From positions 10,253 to 74,252 of IMG/VR virus record IMGVR_UViG_3300026549_000071: 64,000 bases of DNA. One strand, 5' to 3'. Source of the DNA: a virus. Its lineage: Duplodnaviria; Caudoviricetes. Both the position numbers and the translations under genes were made by a program. Positions 3,682-64,000 of this stretch are shown in pieces. Numbering within the stretch: position 1 is the stretch's first letter; each line of letters begins with the position of its first letter. Under the pieces are notes generated by a model. That model had not been told where the DNA came from, did no database searches, and worked only from the letters and a program-made list of their open reading frames with translations.

Positions 3682-4995
3682 TTATTCGATGATCATACGA
3701 TCCAAATCTACACTCACAAGTTTCTGTGTTGTATCATGGAAAGATTTCATCAAAAGATTAAGAAGTCCACCACCTAAAGCAGACGAACTCATGCCCAAAT
3801 TACGTATTCCTAGGGTATAAGGCATCTCTCCTGCACAAATATTGCAAATCTCACCATTCTTAGAGGTACAGTACAGGGGTGAACGAATTAAGATAGTTTG
3901 ACCCACTAATTTATTCAAATCTGCTGCTTCTAAGCACTTTAATTTTCCATTCACGTACTGATACCGTTTCAATAGGGCATGTTTATTCTTTTCCGTTACA
4001 TACACTTGACGGTATTTCTTCGAATGGCAATCAGATCCCTTTGGACCGACATGAATCGCTTGATAACATGCAAACAGTTTCTTCGTTTCATAACCAGCAA
4101 CCGATGTACCAATGGCTTTTGGATAAGCACCATTAATGACAGAGTTTGCATAGGATGGAATCTCTTTCTTCTCCATTCCTTCCACAAAGCAATTCTTAGA
4201 AATATCAAAGCGATCTTCCACGGGATTGTACTGTGGACCGCGCGTAGCAAACATGGCACGGTAACTATTACCAAAGGCTGGTTTTGCACCGGAATCATAC
4301 ACTTGCATTCCAGGATCATGCTTCAATTCTTCCTTTGCATCTTTTAGTAGTTCATCCGTGATCTTAACGGCAGATACCACATCGCCATTATCGAGTTCTT
4401 TCTTGTACTTCTTATAGAGCTCTTCTTTCTTCTTCTTTACACTGGGAAGCATTCTTGTACTATTGGGAGTAAAGGAAGCAGATACCTGCGCATTAAAGGC
4501 GTTACCAAACCACTGGATATTATTCAGGTATTGGGAATATTCATCAACGGTAATCTTTCCCTCCAGAATGGCTTTCACCATAATATCTTCCGTCTCTTTA
4601 ATAACACCTTTCTTATACGGTTTTGCTACATAACCAAGAACCTTCTGGATATTGGGACAATTGCCATACAATGCTTTATTCAGGATCAACTGTCCTACGT
4701 TCGTATGAACTTTCTCTTTGTTAATATATTCCCCAGGTTTCAAATCGAATTCTTCTTGGAACGAAATCTTTGGAGGAACCATTTTCTTCGTTTTGATATC
4801 ATAATGATTACAAAAGGTTCCCTCAATCAAAGTATAACTAATATCATCATATTTCAAATCCAAGATGAATTTACGATCGGCTTCAGATAATGCCATAGAT
4901 CTTTCCACCTTTCTATGTGTTTTAGATATACGTCGCTTTGATAGAAAAAAGAAATCCATGGGAATAATATTCCCATGGATTTCTTTTCTAATCAC
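3682..4995 (-). CDS. rpoC: Multisubunit RNA polymerase beta' subunit, C-terminal piece (probably virion RNAP)
   Basis: Bridge-helix-like AGYETKKL, DC...RSPLYC...ICNIC zinc site and KSFHD trigger-loop region; size matches split beta' C-parts of phiKZ-like phages. Confidence 0.85.
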   Translation of the reverse strand: MIRKEIHGNIIPMDFFFLSKRRISKTHRKVERSMALSEADRKFILDLKYDDISYTLIEGTFCNHYDIKTKKMVPPKISFQEEFDLKPGEYINKEKVHTNVGQLILNKALYGNCPNIQKVLGYVAKPYKKGVIKETEDIMVKAILEGKITVDEYSQYLNNIQWFGNAFNAQVSASFTPNSTRMLPSVKKKKEELYKKYKKELDNGDVVSAVKITDELLKDAKEELKHDPGMQVYDSGAKPAFGNSYRAMFATRGPQYNPVEDRFDISKNCFVEGMEKKEIPSYANSVINGAYPKAIGTSVAGYETKKLFACYQAIHVGPKGSDCHSKKYRQVYVTEKNKHALLKRYQYVNGKLKCLEAADLNKLVGQTILIRSPLYCTSKNGEICNICAGEMPYTLGIRNLGMSSSALGGGLLNLLMKSFHDTTQKLVSVDLDRMIIE

Positions 4996-9483: not shown

Positions 9484-9621
9484 AAATAATCAACTCCTTT
9501 CATATAAATTAAAATGCTGAGATTTATATGAACACCAAGTATCCCGCCAATACTTGATGGAATTGCCAAGTATATAATATATATTTATATATTCCCATGA
9601 CTGATTTTAATTCTATTACTA

Positions 9622-9927
9622 AGATAACAAAAAAGAAAGGAACCGTAACTAGAATGATTCCTTTCTTTGGTCTTTAGATAAGATTAGTTCTTATCTTGAC
9701 CTTCAAGCTCACGGAGCCTAAGTTGCAGCGTCTTTTCGACGGATACCTTATAGGCTTCTTTGAGCTGGGCAGTTCTGTCAAACCGCCCTTCGATGGCATC
9801 CGGTTTGTGCCACCAATAGAGAAGATCTCTAGGCATGAGGATCATCTCCTTTCTGCTCCTAGTTCGGGAGCTATGGATGAAGCATTTCTAGTATGCTTCA
9901 TCCATTCTATTGTATTTATAATATATA
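9622..9927 (-). repeat. ACTAG-loop cassette, copy A
   Basis: Promoter 9918-9927, hairpin 9873-9905 (loop ACTAGAA), hairpin 9855-9871 (loop CGAACTA), terminator ~9628-9670 with TTCTAGT loop; same layout at 19973 and 22607. Confidence 0.9.
9684..9836 (-). CDS. 50-aa cassette protein A (MPRDLLYWWHKPDAIEGRFDRTAQLKEAYKVSVEKTLQLRLRELEGQDKN), not in the ORF track
   Basis: AGAAAGGAG RBS, own promoter and terminator; paralog of 20065-20217. Confidence 0.85.
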   Translation of the reverse strand: MPRDLLYWWHKPDAIEGRFDRTAQLKEAYKVSVEKTLQLRLRELEGQDKN

Positions 9928-9946
9928 CTTGAAATTTTGTAATAAA

Positions 9947-14810: not shown

Positions 14811-14944
14811 TTTATTATAAATCTCCTTTCTTTCATTCGATCTAAATAAATAATATATATTTTAATCAACTATTGGATTTTCCGTCTGTAATACCATGTG
14901 AGTTCGAAGGTAAAAAATAAAAAAAAGAAGCTCCAAACTCTCCA

Positions 14945-15028
14945 CTACGTTTTGACCTTCATGAGATTAGAACATGGCATGTATGCACAATCCTGCTGCT
15001 CCGTTAGAAACATAAACATATTCCGCAT
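14945..15028 (-). CDS. 27-aa small ORF (MRNMFMFLTEQQDCAYMPCSNLMKVKT)
   Basis: GAAAGGAG RBS 10 nt upstream of ATG. Confidence 0.45.
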   Translation of the reverse strand: MRNMFMFLTEQQDCAYMPCSNLMKVKT

Positions 15029-19571: not shown

Positions 19572-19972
19572 AAAAGATACCATAGATACGCCACCAACGT
19601 ATCTATGGTATCTTAGTTGTTTTTGAGTTAATAAGAACGACTCCAACGAAAAACCAAAATTCCCGAAAACAATTGAAATCGCCCTTATATTTCTCTGACG
19701 AAACGATAAGGAATGAAGCAAAATTATCTACGTGATGTATTGCCATGACCTCAGTCGTTTTTACTCGCCATTTGTTTGTGAGTTCTACCTACGTCATCTT
19801 AGATTTTAAACACATCCAATCTAAAAATCTTTACGATCCCACCCAAAGATCGTTTTCAATAGAACTTTCAGTCTTTAATTTTTATCTTCACACATTTATC
19901 GAAAGCTTTCAATAGTATGTTTACACTAATTAAAAAAATTTACATCTTCATCCTATGAACTTTCATTTCATG

Positions 19973-20270
19973 TATATATTATTACCATAAGATAATGAGC
20001 TAAGCATACTAGAAATGCTTAGCTCATAGCTCCCGAACTAGGAGCAGAAAGGAGGATCACCCAAATGGATAAATCCATCCTCTATTGGTGGCATAAACCG
20101 AATGCCATCGAAGGGCGTTTCGATAGAGATGCCCAATTGAAAGAGGCTATTGAACAAGTAAAGCGTGCACAACGTTTATTCGATAGCCTTGAGGAGAAGG
20201 ATAAGAAAGTTTCTTAATCCTTAACTCAGAAAGAAAGAAGCTATTCTAGTTACGGCTTCTTTCTTTTTTG
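19973..20270 (+). repeat. ACTAG-loop cassette, copy B
   Basis: Promoter 19973-19982, hairpin 19995-20027, hairpin 20029-20045, ORF 20065-20217, terminator ~20230-20270 with TTCTAGT loop. Confidence 0.9.
20065..20217 (+). CDS. 50-aa cassette protein B (MDKSILYWWHKPNAIEGRFDRDAQLKEAIEQVKRAQRLFDSLEEKDKKVS), not in the ORF track
   Basis: AGAAAGGAGG RBS; shares LYWWHKPxAIEGRFDRxAQLKEA with the 9684-9836 product. Confidence 0.85.
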   Translation: MDKSILYWWHKPNAIEGRFDRDAQLKEAIEQVKRAQRLFDSLEEKDKKVS

Positions 20271-22584: not shown

Positions 22585-22606
22585 AAGAGTTCTTCAGCCT
22601 TTCGAG

Positions 22607-22896
22607 TATATATTATATACTTAATAAAATGGATCAAGCAGACTAGAACTGCTTGATCCATCGTTCCCGAACTAGGAACAGAAAGGCTGGTGAGTCCCAT
22701 GACTAAGGAATCCCCTTGGGAGAAGTTACTCCCAAATGAAAAACTTGTCCCCACAAGTTTGACAAAACAGGCGATCCTTGATTGTGCTGACGTTCTGCGT
22801 ACGCATAAAATGATTCGCCTGATTCCTGGATGGTGTAAATAACACTATTTAGGAAATGAAGGAAGAAGTATTTCTAGTATGCTTCTTTCTTTTTTG
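22607..22896 (+). repeat. ACTAG-loop cassette, copy C
   Basis: Promoter 22607-22616, hairpin 22629-22661, hairpin 22663-22679, ORF 22699-22842, terminator ~22858-22896 with TTCTAGT loop. Confidence 0.9.
22699..22842 (+). CDS. 47-aa cassette protein C (MTKESPWEKLLPNEKLVPTSLTKQAILDCADVLRTHKMIRLIPGWCK), not in the ORF track
   Basis: Occupies the same cassette position as proteins A and B; AGAAAGG RBS; unrelated sequence. Confidence 0.7.
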   Translation: MTKESPWEKLLPNEKLVPTSLTKQAILDCADVLRTHKMIRLIPGWCK

Positions 22897-23006
22897 TTGC
22901 CTGATATTTCAAAATAAATTTGGAATATATATCATACCTTAGAATTAATGGCCCGTAACATTAGTTCTATTTTGGTATTTTAATTTGAAAGGATATGTGA
23001 TTTACA

Positions 23007-23381
23007 ATGGCAAAATATATTATGAATGCGGTCTCTGGTAACATGTTCGATCTCAGCAAGGAATTCGATCTTTGCTGGAAGCCATTGAGCTTGAACGATG
23101 TTAAGAAACTTCTGAAACAGGGGGACTGGAAGTCCGTGCTCGGGCACGATGACATCGCAAATCTTTTGAGTGAAATGACCGGTTATCATCTTGAGAAAAA
23201 CCGTGTCAATAATACGCTCGAATTCGGTGATAGTGCAATTCTTGCACAGTACAAAGGGCCGAGACTCGAAGAGGGAGCGACGAAGCTTCCGAAAGGTGCA
23301 ACTATCCAGTTTGCACTCGTGTATCCCGCAGAGCATATTAGCCGCCAATATATTGGCAACGGTGAAACGCTCGAAGGATAA
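23007..23381 (+). CDS. acrIII-1: AcrIII-1 / DUF1874 family ring nuclease (anti-type III CRISPR)
   Basis: SVLGH47..IANLLS...NR66V..L..GD..ILAQ..GPR86LEE89G fits the DUF1874 GH / NR / RLxEG signature; near-consensus early promoter TATATATCAT at 22926-22935. Confidence 0.85.
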   Translation: MAKYIMNAVSGNMFDLSKEFDLCWKPLSLNDVKKLLKQGDWKSVLGHDDIANLLSEMTGYHLEKNRVNNTLEFGDSAILAQYKGPRLEEGATKLPKGATIQFALVYPAEHISRQYIGNGETLEG

Positions 23382-26398: not shown

Positions 26399-26489
26399 GA
26401 TTTTCAATCGTTCTATGAAATATATATTATAATGATGGAGAGTCAAAAAGATCTCCATCATTATAATACTTTTAGAAGGAGGTTTTTAC

Positions 26490-28606: not shown

Positions 28607-28697
28607 GGAGCGGTACTCAAGCGGTCGAAGAGGTCAGTCTTGAAAACTGAGAGACCATTCATTTGGTGCGTGGGTTCGAATCCTACTCGCTCCGCCA
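28607..28697 (+). tRNA. tRNA-Ser (UGA anticodon)
   Basis: GGAGCGG/TCGCTCC acceptor stem, TCAGT-CTTGAAA-ACTGA anticodon arm, long variable arm, TTCGAAT T-loop, CCA. Confidence 0.95.
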
Positions 28698-28703
28698 TTT
28701 TAT

Positions 28704-28777
28704 TCTGGCGTAGTTTAATGGTAAAGCACTTCCCCTCCAAGGAAGATTTGTGGGTTCAATCCCCATCGCCAGATCCA
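28704..28777 (+). tRNA. tRNA-Gly (UCC) with atypical C33
   Basis: TCTGGCG/CGCCAGA acceptor, CTTCC-CCTCCAA-GGAAG anticodon arm, U73, CCA. Confidence 0.85.
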
Positions 28778-28783
28778 TTTTAT

Positions 28784-28859
28784 AGCCCTTTAGCCAAGTT
28801 GGTAAAGGCATAGCGCTTTGACCGCTAGATCGCTGGTTCGATCCCAGCAAGGGTTGCCA
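28784..28859 (+). tRNA. tRNA-Gln (UUG)
   Basis: TAGCG-CTTTGAC-CGCTA anticodon arm, TTCGATC T-loop, CCA. Confidence 0.95.
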
Positions 28860-28863
28860 TTTT

Positions 28864-28934
28864 AGGGTCATAGTTTAATGGTAGAACAACGGTCTCCAAA
28901 ACCGTTAGTCATCGTTCGAGTCGATGTGATCCTG
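28864..28934 (+). tRNA. tRNA-Trp (CCA), 3' CCA not encoded
   Basis: AGGGTCA/TGATCCT acceptor, ACGGT-CTCCAAA-ACCGT anticodon arm, G73. Confidence 0.93.
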
Positions 28935-29110: not shown

Positions 29111-30271
29111 TTATCCTTTTTCATACATATCTTTCAACTGATGTTTCAACTCTACAAGGAGTTTCTGTGAAAACATCGTTGGAAGAATACCAATCGTTTG
29201 ACGTGCAAGAACCGATGTTGCAGGAATGCAAGACTCAATTGGCTCATTTGGACGATCAAGAGTATAGGGAGCTTGATCATCTGGAATGACCAAGGCTACT
29301 GTTCCTTTCAAGGCCAGATGATGAGCCATTTTGTCACCAGGTTTCATATTATCAGTAAATTTGATATAGAACTCAATGATGACTCCGTGTTCAATCTTAT
29401 ATCCTTTGACAGCACCTGCTGCATTTGGTTTTACAGGTCCATCAATCTCATAGAAGGTACTTCCTTGATCGGATGGATCGGTAATCTTATATTTCCGAAT
29501 CAGTTTCTTCTTCTCACGAATTCCCTTCCAGTATTTATCAACGATACTACCAAGAGATTTCGAGAGATCAGAGATTTCTTCTGTGCTATAGATGCGAATC
29601 TCATCTACAACCCCAGAGTATTTTGAGCTCAACGTATTCTTTGCCATGGATTTAATATCTTCCCGAAGATCTTTACCAATACCACGGAGCAAGCGGTTTA
29701 CGGATTCTTCATCTGCGGATTGCTCATACGTAATTAATGGCTGACCAACGAGAATCTTATCTCCGACGTTTACAATCTGGGATACCGTAGCATTCGGACC
29801 AAGAATGAGATGCTTTTGCATAACCATCTCCGTTCCCATACGTTTACTTAAACCTTCCGTAATCATATTGGAATCTTCAAAGGTCGCAAATGAACTCATA
29901 ATGGCAATCTTAGAAAGCGTACCAAGATTGAACTTGGCTCCATCATAATGATAGCTATAGTAATCCTTATTCTGTGCGAGAATATCATCTTTCTTAAAAC
30001 GTTGACCTACCTTATACATAGGCAACATCTTATTTTCCAGATAGAATCCACCACCGGCATTCTTCACCATAATGCCATTCAGATTAATGGCTTCATATTT
30101 CCCATTCTTATATTCTGCTACCATCATATTCGTCTTTTTATCAAATTCCACAATTTTACCATCGTCCTGTGCTTTAATGACAAAGTCTTTCGATGCCATA
30201 TAAGGCATCGCTTTTTCAATGCCAGTAGATAACAGAACCGGGCACATATCTTTTACTGGAATCAAATGTTT
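29111..30271 (-). CDS. rpoB: RNA polymerase beta subunit N-part, exon 2
   Basis: KHLIPV, LGTLSKIAIMSSFATFEDS, PGDKMAHHLALKG motifs; joins exon 1 in frame as ...MASKQN|KHLIPV... Confidence 0.88.
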   Translation of the reverse strand, partial: KHLIPVKDMCPVLLSTGIEKAMPYMASKDFVIKAQDDGKIVEFDKKTNMMVAEYKNGKYEAINLNGIMVKNAGGGFYLENKMLPMYKVGQRFKKDDILAQNKDYYSYHYDGAKFNLGTLSKIAIMSSFATFEDSNMITEGLSKRMGTEMVMQKHLILGPNATVSQIVNVGDKILVGQPLITYEQSADEESVNRLLRGIGKDLREDIKSMAKNTLSSKYSGVVDEIRIYSTEEISDLSKSLGSIVDKYWKGIREKKKLIRKYKITDPSDQGSTFYEIDGPVKPNAAGAVKGYKIEHGVIIEFYIKFTDNMKPGDKMAHHLALKGTVALVIPDDQAPYTLDRPNEPIESCIPATSVLARQTIGILPTMFSQKLLVELKHQLKDMYEKG

Positions 30272-30569
30272 CGTTGTATTCACATGGGTCGTTAATCCAT
30301 GCAGTTCTCTTATGAACTTCTATATGTCACCATATAGTCCAGACTATATCTTTATTCCTATTACTAGGAATTGCTCCATTTCGATTTAAGGGATTTTCAC
30401 CCACTCACTTGAGCCCTACTCCTATTGCCGAATTTCACGGCTCCATTTGGATAGTCGTTGAACCTTCTCTTTCGAGCTTGGCTGCTGATTGTCTCTTTTT
30501 AAATAGAGAGTTCCCAGCAATTAAGAGCTAGGAGAATCATAGATTACTCTATGAAACGAACTAAATTTA
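30272..30569 (-). ncRNA. Group I intron (IA-type, 298 nt, no homing endonuclease ORF)
   Basis: P AATTGCTGGGAA, Q AATCAGCAG, R GTTCAACGACTA, S AAGATATAGTCT; P7 GACTA/TAGTC; P1 with U.G at exon-end AAT|TAA; terminal G before AAA CAT. Confidence 0.93.
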
Positions 30570-33566
30570 ATTCTGCTTCGAGGCCATAGCGGTACGAATG
30601 GCATCATCCATGGTAACACCAATGCCATTCACAAGTTCCGAATAACCAAAGAGTTTCGTCTGATCCATTTGATCAGGAGATTCTTTGCAATCAATGAAAC
30701 CTCTTGTATTGGTTACTTTCGGATCAATGGTCAATTCACGTACCACACCACAGTTTGCATCTGGAGATGTACTAATCGTCATACAGCCAATCATCGTTTG
30801 ATCAAAGCAACGTTTTTCTTTTGTATAAGAACGTTCTAGGTTGATACCAGAAGGTCCTTTACATGTGATTGCACGTTCCTTTTCTTTTTCTGTGATTGGA
30901 TTAATGATTGACACATCTTCTACGACGTTACTCGTCAAGATTTCTTTGATGATAGCATCTTTCGGTAACGAAATCTTTTCTGGTGTTGCATATTTTGCCT
31001 TACGTTTGTAATTGGAGTATGATGCAGAAAGTGCTTTATAGAGATAAGCACTAATCATTTCCAAGTTACGTACACGGAATTCTGTTAAGGAAAGTTCCGA
31101 TGAGGAAGCATTATCCGACAGAAGATCGGACGCTGCAAGCATCAATTGTACGAAATCCGTAGGCAAATCCATTTGCTTTAAGATCTCTTCACTGATTGGA
31201 TCAATCATATTATCATAATACGCATCCAAACCAGATGCCAATGCACGATTGCTATACTTCATATCAAAGAAATCCAAGTATGGCATTTGTGTATCGAAAT
31301 CAGAATAGTTATATGCTTTCGTATCAATAAATGTCAATCCGCTCATAAGAAGAGAATGAGCCGTTGGAGTTAAGCTGTATACGAGATACCCATCTGCGAA
31401 CTGAATGGCTGCTTGATCAACTCCAAGATCTCTCGGATTCTTATCCGTAAAATGATACTGAATACCTTCCTTATTCATGACGGTTGTTAAACCTTCAAAA
31501 TAGCTAAGGAAGATAATACTCGGAATCATCTTATTCATAACCTTGCAAGCAGAATACATGAAACGCTTACCTGGTTTATCTTTTGGACCTTGAAGATCCC
31601 AGAAGTTCTTTCCAGTTTCTTTCTCATAGATATGAACGAATGTATCAATAGGTCCATTTAACGTTTCTTTTCCATCATCTTTTTCCGTTCCATCGGATTC
31701 AATGGGACAGACGTATGCTTTTATCTTTGCATTCTCACGTCCATCATAAACACAGTAAATGTATTTATCATCATTGATATCTTCCAGTTTCTTATCATGG
31801 CGAAGTTCATCATAGAACTTTTGATCAAACTTCAAACCGATTCCTTTTCCACGAATGGTAATCCCTGAGAATTCTTTTGCAAGAGAATCATACTCAATCG
31901 AAGTCATATGACCATTATTGACACCCATACCATTTCCTCGTTTTACCTTGAAAATGGCAGGATTATTTGCAATGATTTTCTTGAAGATCGTTACCTTCGG
32001 AGAAACTGTATCGCCTAAACGATATACAAAGATCTTATTATAGTTCGTGCAAACCTGAACACGATCCGCAGAGATTTTAATCAACGGTTTCAAAATCTGC
32101 TGATTGACGAATTGCTTTCTGTTACCAGCAAGATAGAGATAGTTGTTATCATAGACCTTAGGAATATCTACCGTGACACTGTGACGAACTCCATCTTCCG
32201 TCTGAAGTTTTACCGTCCAAGTTTCCTTCAGATCCATTGCAGTTGATGTATCTTCACGTTTGATGTTCGTAATCACAGCAGGAAGATTTTTCTTCTTATT
32301 CAGGGAACGAAATACATTGATGATATCCTTATCCTTGACGTTTTCATTATACGATTTATTGATGTTATCGAAACGAATTTTCTTTACGCTCTTATTTGGC
32401 GTAAAGAGTTTATCCGAGATATCGTCCGATTCAATCGTATAATCAATCTTTGAAGTATCTTCCAAATCTCCTAAGGAGATATTATCCAACTTCAGTTCTT
32501 TCTGTTTCTGACGAAGTGCTTGAAAACGTTTATTTTCCGGAGCTGTACGATTCATCTCCTGAAAATTCGTATCAATGGCTTTCTTCGCCAATTCCATCTC
32601 ATCTTCAGTAAGTTCTTCATGTGTTTTGACAGGATCTTCCTCTGTAAGATCTGCCTTTGGTTCTTTTTTATCAACGATTGTAGTCGATGCAGGAGTAGGA
32701 ACTGCACGAGGAGATGATTTATCTTCCTCTTCTTTTTCCTTCTGCTGAATCTTTTCAACTTCTTTTTCTTTCTCGATTTTCTCTTCTTCCGTTTCTGGAG
32801 AGAGATCCAAATTGATTTCTTTTGATTTGCATTTATTCATGCAAGAATAGAGTTTCATACTGATTTCTTTTTCCGTATGACTCATATCCCAGTAGAACAA
32901 ACCAAACGTATCATCGAGAATAATCAATGTATAATCCTTTAATGGCTCTAAACCTTCAGGATCTTTCTTTAGGAGTTCATAAAACATTGAAATCGGATTC
33001 ATCATCTTCTGATTAATGCTCATGACTTTCGAACGATTACTGGTACTAATTCCCCACGATTTCGTATCCAAAATCAGGTAACGGTGTTCATGGTTCAATC
33101 CAGCACAAACTGTTTTCAGGTAACGAGCAAGATGCCGCACATACGATTTGCAGAGTATGGGATAATTCTTTCCCTTAGAATGTTCCAAGAAAGCACTATT
33201 TACATCACTCGTATCCACAAAGATATTCTTATTACGAACTCCCGCTGGTTTCGTATAGAGTGTTAATTTGAGTTTCTTTACATCATTCGACAGTGTTGCG
33301 ATTTCACTTGCATCCATCTTTTCACGGATGGTTGTTGTGAAGATCTTATCCGTATAACGAAACGGTTTATAATACCGAGCAAATTTAGAGTCTCGATACA
33401 GTAACAGATTCTTCAAGATATCTGAACACTGTGTTGGGTTTTTAATCAAGAGACCAATGAAAGTTCCTTCCAAAGGTTTCTTTGGATCATATGGGAGTCG
33501 GGTAAGTGTGGTCTTATATTTCAATTCACCATAGTCTTCCAGTTTATTCGCCATATGAGAATTCAC
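30570..33566 (-). CDS. rpoB: RNA polymerase beta subunit N-part, exon 1 (spliced product about 1385 aa; probably virion RNAP)
   Basis: GPSGI..ER, STSPDANCGVVRELT, DDAIRTAMASKQ motifs; GGAGGTG RBS; GACA-N6-TA at 33600-33611. Confidence 0.88.
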
Positions 33567-53694: not shown

Positions 53695-53862
53695 TTTGGC
53701 TACCTCCTTTCTTTATAAGCGGCTAAGCGCTTCGGAAGAATAAATCTTCCTACCAAATTGATATATAAGTAAGACCAACATCATCTTACTTTTCATAAGA
53801 TGATGTTGGTTCACTTATTCATTATTATAATATATATTCTAACGGGATTTTGAAAATATACA

Positions 53863-61774: not shown

Positions 61775-64000
61775 ATGAGTGAATTAAAAGGTAGACTCAA
61801 AGTTAACTATAACGACGAGTATGTTATCATTCACCCAGAAACGACTTCGGATGAAGTTCTGGGTCTTGATAGTGCAATACTGAATATCATTCCGCAAAAC
61901 GTTCATGCTCTTTCGAAAGAGTATGCCGTTGGTGATGTTGTGTATGATAAGAATCTCCCTTCTTGGGCGTATCTTGAGTGCACGACGGCTGGTACCAGTG
62001 CGGCAAGTGAAGTTTCCGAACTTAATTCGTCTGTAACGGAAGGTCAATCCATTACGGATGGAACGGCTACTTGGATTGTTCGTAAAGTTGGTAATCCGAA
62101 TCCAGATAGTCTGAAAGACTATGCAACGGTGGTTCGCGATACGGCTGAGAACTTTGCCAGTAACAATACCGTTCTGAAGGATAATGAGATTGGTCTGGAA
62201 ACCGATACAGGTAAGATTAAGATCGGTGATGGAACGACTGCTTGGAACGACATTACGTACAGTGGTGGAGGATCTTCCAGCGGTGGTTCTACGATTCGTC
62301 TGGCAGATGTTACTAATGCATCGGCAGTTGCAGATGCTAGTAAAGTTTCTCTGAAATGGACGGATCCGGATAACCTGACGCTCAATGATGCAGCACTTGC
62401 TACTTGGGCTGGTACGAAGGTCATTCGGAAAGCTGGTTCTGCTCCGGAAAATGAGAATGACGGAACGGTTGTTCTTGATAGTACGACGAAGAATGCTTAT
62501 GCTTCTACGGCGTATGTTGATACGACGGTGGAGAATGGTACTACGTACTACTACATGTTCTGCCCGTATTCCACGGATGGTGCAGTGACGGCTGGTACGG
62601 TTGTGAACGGTACACCGAATCTCTATAAGCCGACGATTACACTCAGCGAAACTGCTGTGGATGTAATTTCTCCGGCAAATCTGACGAAGACGGTTACCGT
62701 TACTTCCAATAGTTCCGGTGCATTTACGGTTGCTTCTTCCAATGAAGCGGCTGCAAAGGTTGCTATTTCTGGTAGTACGGTTACGATCACGTATGTTGCA
62801 GATGGTAAAGCAACCGTTACGATTACACAGGCGGCTGCGGGTGATTATGCAGAGGGTTCTGCAACGATTGCTGTTACGACGCGTACGGGTTACCGTTACG
62901 GCTTTAAGATTGCGAAGAATGAAAGTGATCCGAAAGCCCGTGTTACGTATCTCTATGATGCCGTTGGCATGACGCCGTCTTCTATTACGCTTTCAACCTC
63001 TGGTGCAAAGCCGGATCTTGGTAGCTGGGGTGATGTGTGGTTCGTCAAGGACAACAAACCTCTCATGCTGAAGCAAGATGGTACGGTGGATTATTACCTC
63101 TACAAGAATAACTATGCCCATAAGGCTGGTCTTGTAAACGGTAAATATGCAGACGTTGATGTCGACAGTGGTGTTTCTTCGGATGTTGCCAATACGTCTT
63201 ATAATGGTAATGCCATGGCACAGATTCCTCTGTGCTGGGTGTATCGTTATGAAGATTCGAACTACATCTACACGATTGTGTCAGATGTCAAGTTCGATGA
63301 CAACTACAAGGCGTATGCTCACACGGGCTCGGATGGAACGGTGCATGATTACTTCTACTGGAGTCTGTTCATGGGTTCCGGTTCGACCAGTAAGATTCGT
63401 TCCATTAGTGGTCAGGATATTCTTACCTCTACGAAAGCTGAGCAGGAAACGACTGCTTGTAAAGCAAACAATTCCGATACGACTGGTGTCAATGGTAAGG
63501 GTTGGTATACGCACACTTGGAGTCAATGGACGCTGCTTCAGACGCTTCTTGTGCTGATCAGTAAATCGACCAATACGCAGGAATCCTTCGGCTATGGCTA
63601 TGCGAATGGATCTAGTTCGGATCCTAACACGAAATCTGGTGCGCTGATTGATAAAGGTCAGTTCTTCGGATATAGTGCCGGTGCTTACCGTATGAAGGCC
63701 TTCCATATTGAAGACCTTTGGGGTATGTATTGGGACCGAGTTGCTGGGTTGATGTCGAATAACGGCCATTACTATGTGAAGATGACTCCTGAAGGTGATG
63801 CTTATCGTATTACTGATACGACGGGCATGACACAGATTACGTCTCCTACATTGCCTGCTTCCGGTTGGCTGAAAAATACGAGTGGTTCGGAGTATGGATT
63901 CCTGCCCAGCGCTACATCTGGTTCGGATAGTACATACTATTGTGATTACTTCTACCAGAGTTCTGGATTGAATTACCTCCTCGCCGGGGCGAGCGCGAAC
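61775..64000 (+). CDS. Tail fibre / receptor-binding protein (Mtd-like N-domain, FN3-like, Ig-like, C-terminal C-type-lectin fold); runs off the window end
   Basis: Open frame of 742 codons to the edge (absent from the ORF track because it has no stop); EIGLETDTGKIKIGDG, LKWTDP...TTYYY, IEDLWG, YYCDY...LLAG motifs. Confidence 0.85.
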   Translation, partial: MSELKGRLKVNYNDEYVIIHPETTSDEVLGLDSAILNIIPQNVHALSKEYAVGDVVYDKNLPSWAYLECTTAGTSAASEVSELNSSVTEGQSITDGTATWIVRKVGNPNPDSLKDYATVVRDTAENFASNNTVLKDNEIGLETDTGKIKIGDGTTAWNDITYSGGGSSSGGSTIRLADVTNASAVADASKVSLKWTDPDNLTLNDAALATWAGTKVIRKAGSAPENENDGTVVLDSTTKNAYASTAYVDTTVENGTTYYYMFCPYSTDGAVTAGTVVNGTPNLYKPTITLSETAVDVISPANLTKTVTVTSNSSGAFTVASSNEAAAKVAISGSTVTITYVADGKATVTITQAAAGDYAEGSATIAVTTRTGYRYGFKIAKNESDPKARVTYLYDAVGMTPSSITLSTSGAKPDLGSWGDVWFVKDNKPLMLKQDGTVDYYLYKNNYAHKAGLVNGKYADVDVDSGVSSDVANTSYNGNAMAQIPLCWVYRYEDSNYIYTIVSDVKFDDNYKAYAHTGSDGTVHDYFYWSLFMGSGSTSKIRSISGQDILTSTKAEQETTACKANNSDTTGVNGKGWYTHTWSQWTLLQTLLVLISKSTNTQESFGYGYANGSSSDPNTKSGALIDKGQFFGYSAGAYRMKAFHIEDLWGMYWDRVAGLMSNNGHYYVKMTPEGDAYRITDTTGMTQITSPTLPASGWLKNTSGSEYGFLPSATSGSDSTYYCDYFYQSSGLNYLLAGASAN

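Follow-up and report, generated by a model that had tools for sequence, protein, structure and literature searches.

Organization of the copy C locus

The unit analyzed here, denoted copy C, occupies positions 22606-22896 of the window, that is, of the complete 64,000-nt stretch of DNA that was analyzed (positions 10,253-74,252 of IMG/VR record IMGVR_UViG_3300026549_000071, an uncultured member of the Caudoviricetes). Combined sequence and fold analysis delineates a self-contained small early transcription unit with the following features (window coordinates):

22606-22616, plus strand, early promoter motif GTATATATTAT, followed by 6 nt and a purine (predicted start A22623)
22629-22661, plus strand, hairpin 1, perfect 13-bp stem with the 7-nt loop ACTAGAA at 22642-22648
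22663-22679, plus strand, hairpin 2, 5-bp stem with the 7-nt loop CGAACTA, one base past hairpin 1 and abutting the Shine-Dalgarno (SD) sequence
22680-22686, plus strand, SD sequence AGAAAGG, at the same distance from the ATG as in copy B
22699-22842, plus strand, cargo ORF of 47 codons, ATG at 22699
22823-22855, plus strand, stop-codon hairpin of 14 bp, with the stop codon (22840-22842) in and next to the loop in the full-length fold
22858-22895, plus strand, intrinsic terminator: hairpin at 22858-22892 with a 14-bp stem and the loop TTCTAGT (22872-22878), and a T run that extends to 22895

The predicted leader fold is substantially better than those of shuffled sequences (z-score -4.1), and the terminator fold is 3.5 standard deviations better than its shuffles. 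The leader hairpins are positioned after the predicted start and have no T run on their 3' side. The gene directly downstream (23007-23381) encodes a protein of the Pfam STIV_B116-like family (E 2.3e-10), to which the AcrIII-1 ring nucleases belong, and is preceded by an early promoter with one mismatch at about 22926.

Among the genes of the window are those for a chaperonin, for four tRNAs and for split multisubunit RNA polymerase (RNAP) beta-like proteins, one of them with a group I intron:

3682-4995, further RNAP beta-like subunit
28607-28934, cluster of four tRNA genes (Rfam tRNA, 52-64 bits)
29111-33566, minus strand, RNAP beta-like gene split into 999-aa and 390-aa frames by the group I intron
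30320-30578, minus strand, group I intron in the RNAP beta-like gene (Rfam, 90.7 bits)

A second IMG/VR record, IMGVR_UViG_3300032007_000084 (hereafter G001), overlaps that of the window end to start: its first 1109 bases match the last 1109 bases of the window's record (G001 1-1109 corresponds to window 62892-64000) with 99.8% identity, so G001 is a neighbouring piece of one phage genome rather than another phage. Joined, the two records span 138.7 kb (~139 kb) of a genome that is still incomplete, and contigs of up to 186 kb appear in the cluster data for the proteins of this phage. Judging by its sequence, it appears to be an uncultured jumbo phage of the AR9/phiKZ kind. A blastn search with 1.7 kb around copy C yielded no match among GenBank phages.

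The early promoter and the 5' end of the transcript

The joined 139 kb contain 31 sites, mostly ahead of genes, at which [A/G/T]TATATATTAT has, after a 6-nt gap, a purine in most cases; in the window, the motif with a purine 6 nt downstream occurs 23 times against 3.3 expected. This repeated motif is the early promoter consensus of the Bacillus jumbo phage AR9, which was mapped by dRNA-seq and is used by the injected virion RNAP, with transcription starting 6 nt downstream (Lavysh et al. 2017, PMC5312081). The two phages are alike in the promoter motif, in the purine start 6 nt downstream and in the split multisubunit RNAP genes, and the virion RNAP is predicted to initiate the copy C transcript at A22623.

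Hairpin 1 begins 12 nt past the promoter motif and 6 nt past the predicted start in all four copies of the unit (A, B, C and D, see below). The outermost 5' end that these copies share is the generic early promoter of the phage and is not specific to the cassette; the cassette-specific 5' part is the two-hairpin leader of the four units. Other early units of the phage work without this leader, which therefore is not needed for early expression as such. As a separate observation, several other early promoters have a strong, unrelated hairpin directly behind them, at the predicted start or close to it (window 26420-26470 and 53780-53837; 124587 and 125861 in the joined sequence, with the window numbering extended into G001), so that 5'-terminal hairpins may be a general habit of the early transcripts of this phage.

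Four copies in one phage lineage

The window contains three copies of the unit, dispersed over both strands:

9627-9928 (approximate), minus strand, copy A, layout as in copy C, ORF at 9684-9836
19972-20268, plus strand, copy B, with the common promoter, leader and SD sequence, a 50-aa ORF (20065-20217) and a terminator with an 11-nt loop that contains TTCTAGT
22606-22896, plus strand, copy C, with the 47-aa ORF and a terminator with the 7-nt loop TTCTAGT

A further copy, D, is located on G001, ~55 kb further along, and, given that the two records are parts of one genome, represents a fourth paralogue. The 21-nt pattern of hairpin 2 and the SD sequence occurs three times in the window (copies A, B and C) against 0.00 expected, and a covariance model of the leader (R1) matches only the units A, B, C and D in the two records. 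The ~350 bases at 19615-19965, which separate a bidirectional terminator (19574-19614) from the copy B promoter, have no convincing ORF and are conserved in the 11-kb contig L009 of a close relative (93-97% identical to the window) that also carries copy B.

Exact patterns for hairpin 1, hairpin 2 with the SD sequence, and the terminator were scanned across IMG/VR, JGI metagenomes and GTDB genomes. They recovered the same phage (G001 and L008, a second sample of copy D from a copy of the G001 phage) and the near-identical relative L009 only; no relative of the cassette was found outside this phage lineage in these collections. One other match (L024) is located inside a coding region and was dismissed as a chance occurrence, as were 65 further pattern matches, none of which scored above 19.1 bits with the leader model. 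At gathering score, Rfam 15 yielded no family match at 9600-9930, 19970-20270 or 22600-22900, and the matches elsewhere in the window are the group I intron and the four tRNAs.

The two-hairpin leader

The leader of copy C is 78-88% identical to those of A, B and D, and the differences include compensatory changes. Relative to copy A, 7 of the 58 positions differ: six of these make up three compensatory pairs, the seventh is a single linker base, and none falls in the loops or the SD sequence. Across the leaders of A, B, C and D and that of L009, five sequences in total, each of the 90 pair cells holds a standard pair (100%), and 6 of the 18 pairs show double changes; when the partners were slid by 1-3 columns as a control, 30-43% of the cells were paired and no double changes appeared. 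Hairpin 1 accounts for most of these events, with compensatory changes in 5 of its 13 pairs and none broken, whereas hairpin 2 has one compensatory pair, C-G to U-A, in copy C only. Compensatory changes had been noted in both hairpins of copy C in the initial annotation, and the alignments bear this out, the closing pair of hairpin 1 being changed from U-A to G-C.

The sole single-sided stem change among the leaders, in L009, produces a sense-strand G.U pair; RNA tolerates such a pair, whereas a palindrome in DNA is broken by it. With co-varying stems, fixed loops and a single-sided change to G.U, the leader conforms to a 5' UTR element that acts at the RNA level and is a poor fit to DNA termini; on the strength of these comparisons, it appears to be an RNA structure under selection. 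The loop sequence ACTAGAA by itself is not enriched in the window (10 occurrences versus 9.4 expected), and the signal lies in its placement in the loops of long hairpins.

In copies A, B and D, the SD motif runs on to AGAAAGGAG(G), whereas copy C has AGAAAGG. The former sequence is complementary to the 3' end of the 16S rRNA of Bacillota, and this complementarity suggests a Bacillota host.

Two other interpretations of the leader were rejected. Mimicry of a tRNA or anticodon loop by the 7-nt loops does not fit, by visual inspection, because both 5' loops lack the nearly universal U33. Antitermination of the HK022 put type, which also involves two hairpins one base apart, was discarded because each unit has its own terminator and the next gene its own promoter.

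Cargo genes and folded interiors

The ORF of copy C was originally described as unrelated to proteins A and B, and the searches agree. BLASTP gives no alignment at E<=100, and the local-alignment score of the DNA interior (19) lies within the range for shuffled sequences (mean 16, maximum 29), compared with 82 between A and B; neither in DNA nor in protein does the C interior resemble A, B or D. The description of copy C as the same 5' end joined to a different cargo thus stands.

The product of copy C has two homologues from other samples (87-88% identity, with conservative substitutions), which brings its family to three members. In one of these (P0002), the 15 N-terminal residues differ and do not match a read-through of this leader, a hint that the C cargo also exists behind another upstream sequence. 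The products of A, B and D form a family of 50-aa proteins with an invariant core and synonymous third-position differences in the DNA alignment, and public data contain ten further variants or members, whose contigs reach 186 kb. By these sequence comparisons, the ORFs of both A/B/D and C are real genes. No Pfam family matched either the C product or the A/B/D family, the protein atlas gave no usable match for the small cargo proteins, and neither family gained a match to distant profiles, a profile search with the C family returning only repetitive junk proteins. Searches of IMG/VR with neighbouring window proteins and the C cargo produced nothing, as did a direct search of G001 with two neighbouring proteins and the C cargo. 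AlphaFold predicts simple short helices for both peptide families (pLDDT about 72), too plain for a fold search. A type I toxin-antitoxin system of the hok/sok kind was considered and rejected: the peptides are polar and helical rather than hydrophobic membrane peptides, and, as regards an antisense RNA, the reverse strand of the cassette has none of the listed sites of the early promoter motif.

The ORF interiors are also strongly folded in silico, with fold z-scores of -5.0 (A), -7.4 (B), -5.5 (C) and -3.4 (D), against a mean of -1.0 (standard deviation 1.5) for seventy random 150-nt windows of the phage, 2 of which reach -5. For copies A, B and D, the predictions have hairpins in common within the conserved core of the coding sequence as well as at the stop codon, the stop hairpin with two compensatory pairs. 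Copy C, despite its unrelated sequence, has the same chain-of-hairpins layout, stop-codon hairpin included. The whole transcript is therefore predicted to be unusually folded.

Small early genes turn over quickly in this lineage. Compared with the window, L009 lacks 75 nt inside the ORF of copy B and not at the motifs (minus strand of L009 at 1410-1470, corresponding to 20064-20140 of the window). The deletion takes away the start codon together with the 50-aa protein's conserved N-terminal core, and the promoter, both hairpins, the SD sequence and the terminator are kept. A small early gene of ~80 codons that is intact in L009 (6508-6768) is represented in the window (14938-15006, minus strand) by a short, internally deleted frame that retains only its two ends. 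Unrelated cargo between homologous leaders further implies that at least one recombination event would have joined the module to a new ORF.

The terminator and its complementarity to the leader

According to the initial annotation, the reverse complement of the copy C terminator core matches the hairpin 1 core of copies A and B at 18 of 19 nt, and the two ends of the unit are related inverted copies. The match is correct and extends to 20 of 21 nt when the flanking pair is included; moreover, the leader covariance model detects the opposite strand of the copy C terminator with 32.6 bits (E 5.5e-7). The broader claim holds for this terminator and not for those of A, B and D, which the leader model does not match. 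These terminators have 11-13-nt loops and upper stems unlike those of copy C, and share with hairpin 1 only a 7-nt loop core and generic purine/pyrimidine stems. Stems of a purine run and a T run are also found in other terminators of the phage.

What is common to all four terminators is TTCTAGT in the loop, the exact complement of the hairpin 1 loop ACTAGAA. Each transcript thus carries complementary 7-nt segments in its 5' and 3' UTRs, exact in the four copies save for a wobble in D, where a C-to-U change in the 5' loop keeps the pair with the terminator loop. The predicted energy of the loop-loop duplex is -6.0 to -6.3 kcal/mol (-6.0 in copy C), or -4.0 in copy D; 0.05% of random 7-mers reach the value for copy C, and at most 0.15% do so over the copies. 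Selection on the complementarity accounts better than simple common descent does for the presence of TTCTAGT in two differently built terminators.

Hairpins with a CTAG-containing loop and a stem of at least 13 bp are confined to the cassettes, with the exception of one at 64283 (in the G001 continuation, window numbering extended). An explanation through avoidance of CTAG as a restriction site was rejected, with 136 CTAG observed versus 133 expected. Finally, the copy C terminator is complementary over 19-21 nt to hairpin 1 of A, B and D and over 7 nt to its own, and on the plus strand the hairpin of A and the terminator of C are direct repeats, which makes a short conversion patch a possible origin of the similarity.

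Comparison with known systems

The closest precedent for the cargo difference of copy C seems, by analogy, to be the PeSL cassettes of T4-type phages, which mediate cargo replacement (Arbiol et al. 2010, PMC2839356). In both cases, small ORFs of unknown function, situated in variable early regions, are bordered by a repeated composite of early promoter, stem-loop and SD sequence, and unrelated ORFs reside between similar motifs (Arbiol et al. 2010, PMC2839356; Comeau et al. 2014, PMC4122927). However, PeSL elements have host sigma-70 promoters and a stem-loop that is a terminator before or within the promoter, whereas the A-D units have a promoter of the virion-RNAP type and 5' UTR hairpins that co-vary as RNA. 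For PeSL, mini-circles and motif-bounded indels between relatives have been shown. The complementarity of the 3' terminator loop to the 5' loop is an additional difference from PeSL.

With respect to the architecture of the message, the units resemble the hbs mRNA of Bacillus subtilis, which has two 5' hairpins, a strong SD sequence and pairing of its 5' UTR with its 3' UTR, which slows RNase Y (Braun, Durand and Condon 2017, PMC5737220). The hbs message and the transcripts of the units alike are short and combine two 5' hairpins with a very strong SD sequence, a small ORF, an intrinsic terminator and complementary UTRs. In hbs, however, 14 nt pair, in single-stranded segments that follow hairpin 2 and precede the terminator, with an effect proved by compensatory mutants (PMC5737220), whereas a 7-nt kissing geometry between hairpin loops is predicted for the A-D units. 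In the main text of the AR9 study, the word "hairpin" is absent, so that no shared structured leader or loop-matched terminator is described there (PMC5312081).

The copy C terminator and the 5' hairpins of A, B and D are near-perfect sense and antisense images of each other, in which they resemble RNA I and RNA II of ColE1. In ColE1 and related antisense systems, hairpins with fully complementary 7-nt loops engage in loop-loop kissing. Here, in contrast, both hairpins are on the same strand and transcript and do not arise by convergent transcription of one DNA segment, and a Rop-like partner is not known.

Alternative explanations

Among the alternatives to a role in expression and message stability, the one that fares best, which we nevertheless consider unlikely, is that the leader is a protein operator: the fixed loops on co-varying stems would bind an RNA-binding protein of the phage or the host, possibly the 50-aa product of A, B and D, through which the four micro-genes would be jointly controlled in translation or decay, and the match between the 5' and 3' loops would be incidental or historical. 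A fixed loop on a variable stem is the usual mark of protein-bound RNA hairpins, such as the MS2 operator and lambda boxB, and the leader, which is limited to four co-expressed units, bears this signature, with hairpin 2 abutting the SD sequence and CTAG in all three loops. However, no candidate protein emerged, and the small proteins are plain helices, predicted with moderate confidence; moreover, a protein specific for the 5' loop would not recognize the complementary loop of the terminator, which leaves the conservation of TTCTAGT in two terminator builds unexplained.

It is decidedly unlikely, in our estimate, that the complementarity is a relic without function, the terminator hairpin being an inverted copy of hairpin 1, or having received a patch from it, with template switching at a palindrome, or else gene conversion over a short tract, as the cause. 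The confinement of the 20/21 match to a 21-nt patch with unrelated flanks, and the better fit of the C terminator to the hairpins of A, B and D than to its own, are what such an event would leave behind, but the terminators of A, B and D, with diverged stems and another loop size, keep the 7-nt core, and a neutral relic should not.

That the units are mobile or actively recombining cassettes, as was implicit in the initial annotation, we regard as very improbable. In this scheme, a recombinase or transposase would recognize the hairpins as terminal inverted repeats, with the cargos swapped between them; unrelated cargo between similar ends, copies scattered on both strands and the mutually inverted ends of copy C are all compatible with it. 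However, the 5' hairpin lies inside the transcript, downstream of a promoter that is generic (31 copies) and forms the 5' boundary, and the stem covariation with a G.U wobble argues for RNA structure; the inverted copy is present in one of the four terminators only; and no consistent repeat indicative of a target-site duplication was found at either candidate boundary of the copies. Searches with Pfam Y1_Tnp and Phage_integrase of the window's record (G000) and G001, 139 kb of an incomplete genome, detected neither a Y1 transposase nor a tyrosine recombinase, and the controls were detected. The negative results for flanking repeats and for a cognate enzyme likewise speak against assigning the unit to transposons or MITEs with terminal inverted repeats, to IS200/IS605-type elements with hairpin ends or to integron cassettes. 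Nor was the element seen in any other phage searched. Nothing points to a dedicated mobility mechanism, and we do not think that the unit transposes.

Regulation in trans has, in our view, a very slim chance of being the right explanation. The 3' end of the C transcript, that is, the terminator hairpin, would pair with the A, B and D mRNAs at their 5' hairpins and regulate them, starting with a loop-loop kiss as in plasmid antisense systems, and the contiguous complementarity of 19-21 nt, against 7 nt within copy C, is in line with this. Yet hairpins that share a palindromic stem are automatically complementary, so that only the loop is informative, and both partners would be locked in stable hairpins (-15 and about -20 kcal/mol).

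Least credible of all is a DNA operator, a perfect inverted repeat just past the start that would act as a double-stranded repressor site shutting off these early units: the position (+7 to +39) suits a roadblock and the inner half-sites AAGCA/TGCTT are invariant in the four copies, but the outer arms change on both sides with pairing preserved, for which a double-stranded site has no need, conservation is highest in the asymmetric loop, and the palindrome is broken by the G.T change of L009 on just one strand.

A proposed reusable module for early expression and stability

The explanation that we favour, to which we give about an even chance, is that copy C is an autonomous early micro-gene unit whose conserved ends constitute a reusable module for early expression and message stability, mounted on different small genes. 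The injected virion RNAP would start at A22623 and produce a transcript of roughly 270 nt that carries, in order, a 13-bp hairpin 6 nt from its 5' end, the small hairpin, an SD sequence of the Bacillota type, the 47-codon ORF and the intrinsic terminator. In Bacillota, 5'-proximal hairpins and ribosomes at a strong SD sequence block RNase J1, and terminators block 3' exonucleases. By the same logic, the 5'-proximal hairpin and strong SD sequence of copy C could block decay in the 5'-to-3' direction and the terminator decay from the 3' end, while the complementary 7-nt loops of hairpin 1 and the terminator might kiss and hold the ends of the mRNA together. Recombination would have joined the module to an unrelated small ORF at least once, as in the promoter/stem-loop cassettes of T4-type phages.

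Several observations temper this proposal. The four copies are paralogues in one lineage, so the conserved loops represent few independent events. The loop pairing is short, 7 bp, compared with 14 in hbs, where hairpin loops are not what pairs. The copy C terminator finds a better partner in hairpin 1 of A, B and D than in its own, an outcome that a purely in-cis model fails to predict. The L009 version of copy B, which lost the start of the ORF and kept the leader and terminator, indicates either that the ends may matter without translation or that the deletion is simply recent.

A more far-reaching version of the module hypothesis, which we put forward as a rather doubtful possibility, is that these units represent a new class of fully hairpinned micro-mRNAs that close through a 7-bp kiss. 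Such early messages would be very stable and immediately translated, and possibly hardened against single-strand-specific host RNases, and the copy C terminator would additionally be able to pair in trans with the other three 5' hairpins.

Should the loop-loop contact prove genuine, phage mRNAs would have in it a compact, portable means of joining their ends, using nothing beyond a 5' hairpin and a terminator. Even without the kiss, the promoter, leader, SD sequence and terminator make up a defined early-expression module of an uncultured jumbo phage, one that marks tiny early genes missed by gene callers and adjoins a recognizable anti-CRISPR gene. The modular reuse of regulatory ends that was described in T4-type phages would thus extend to a phage with its own RNA polymerases.
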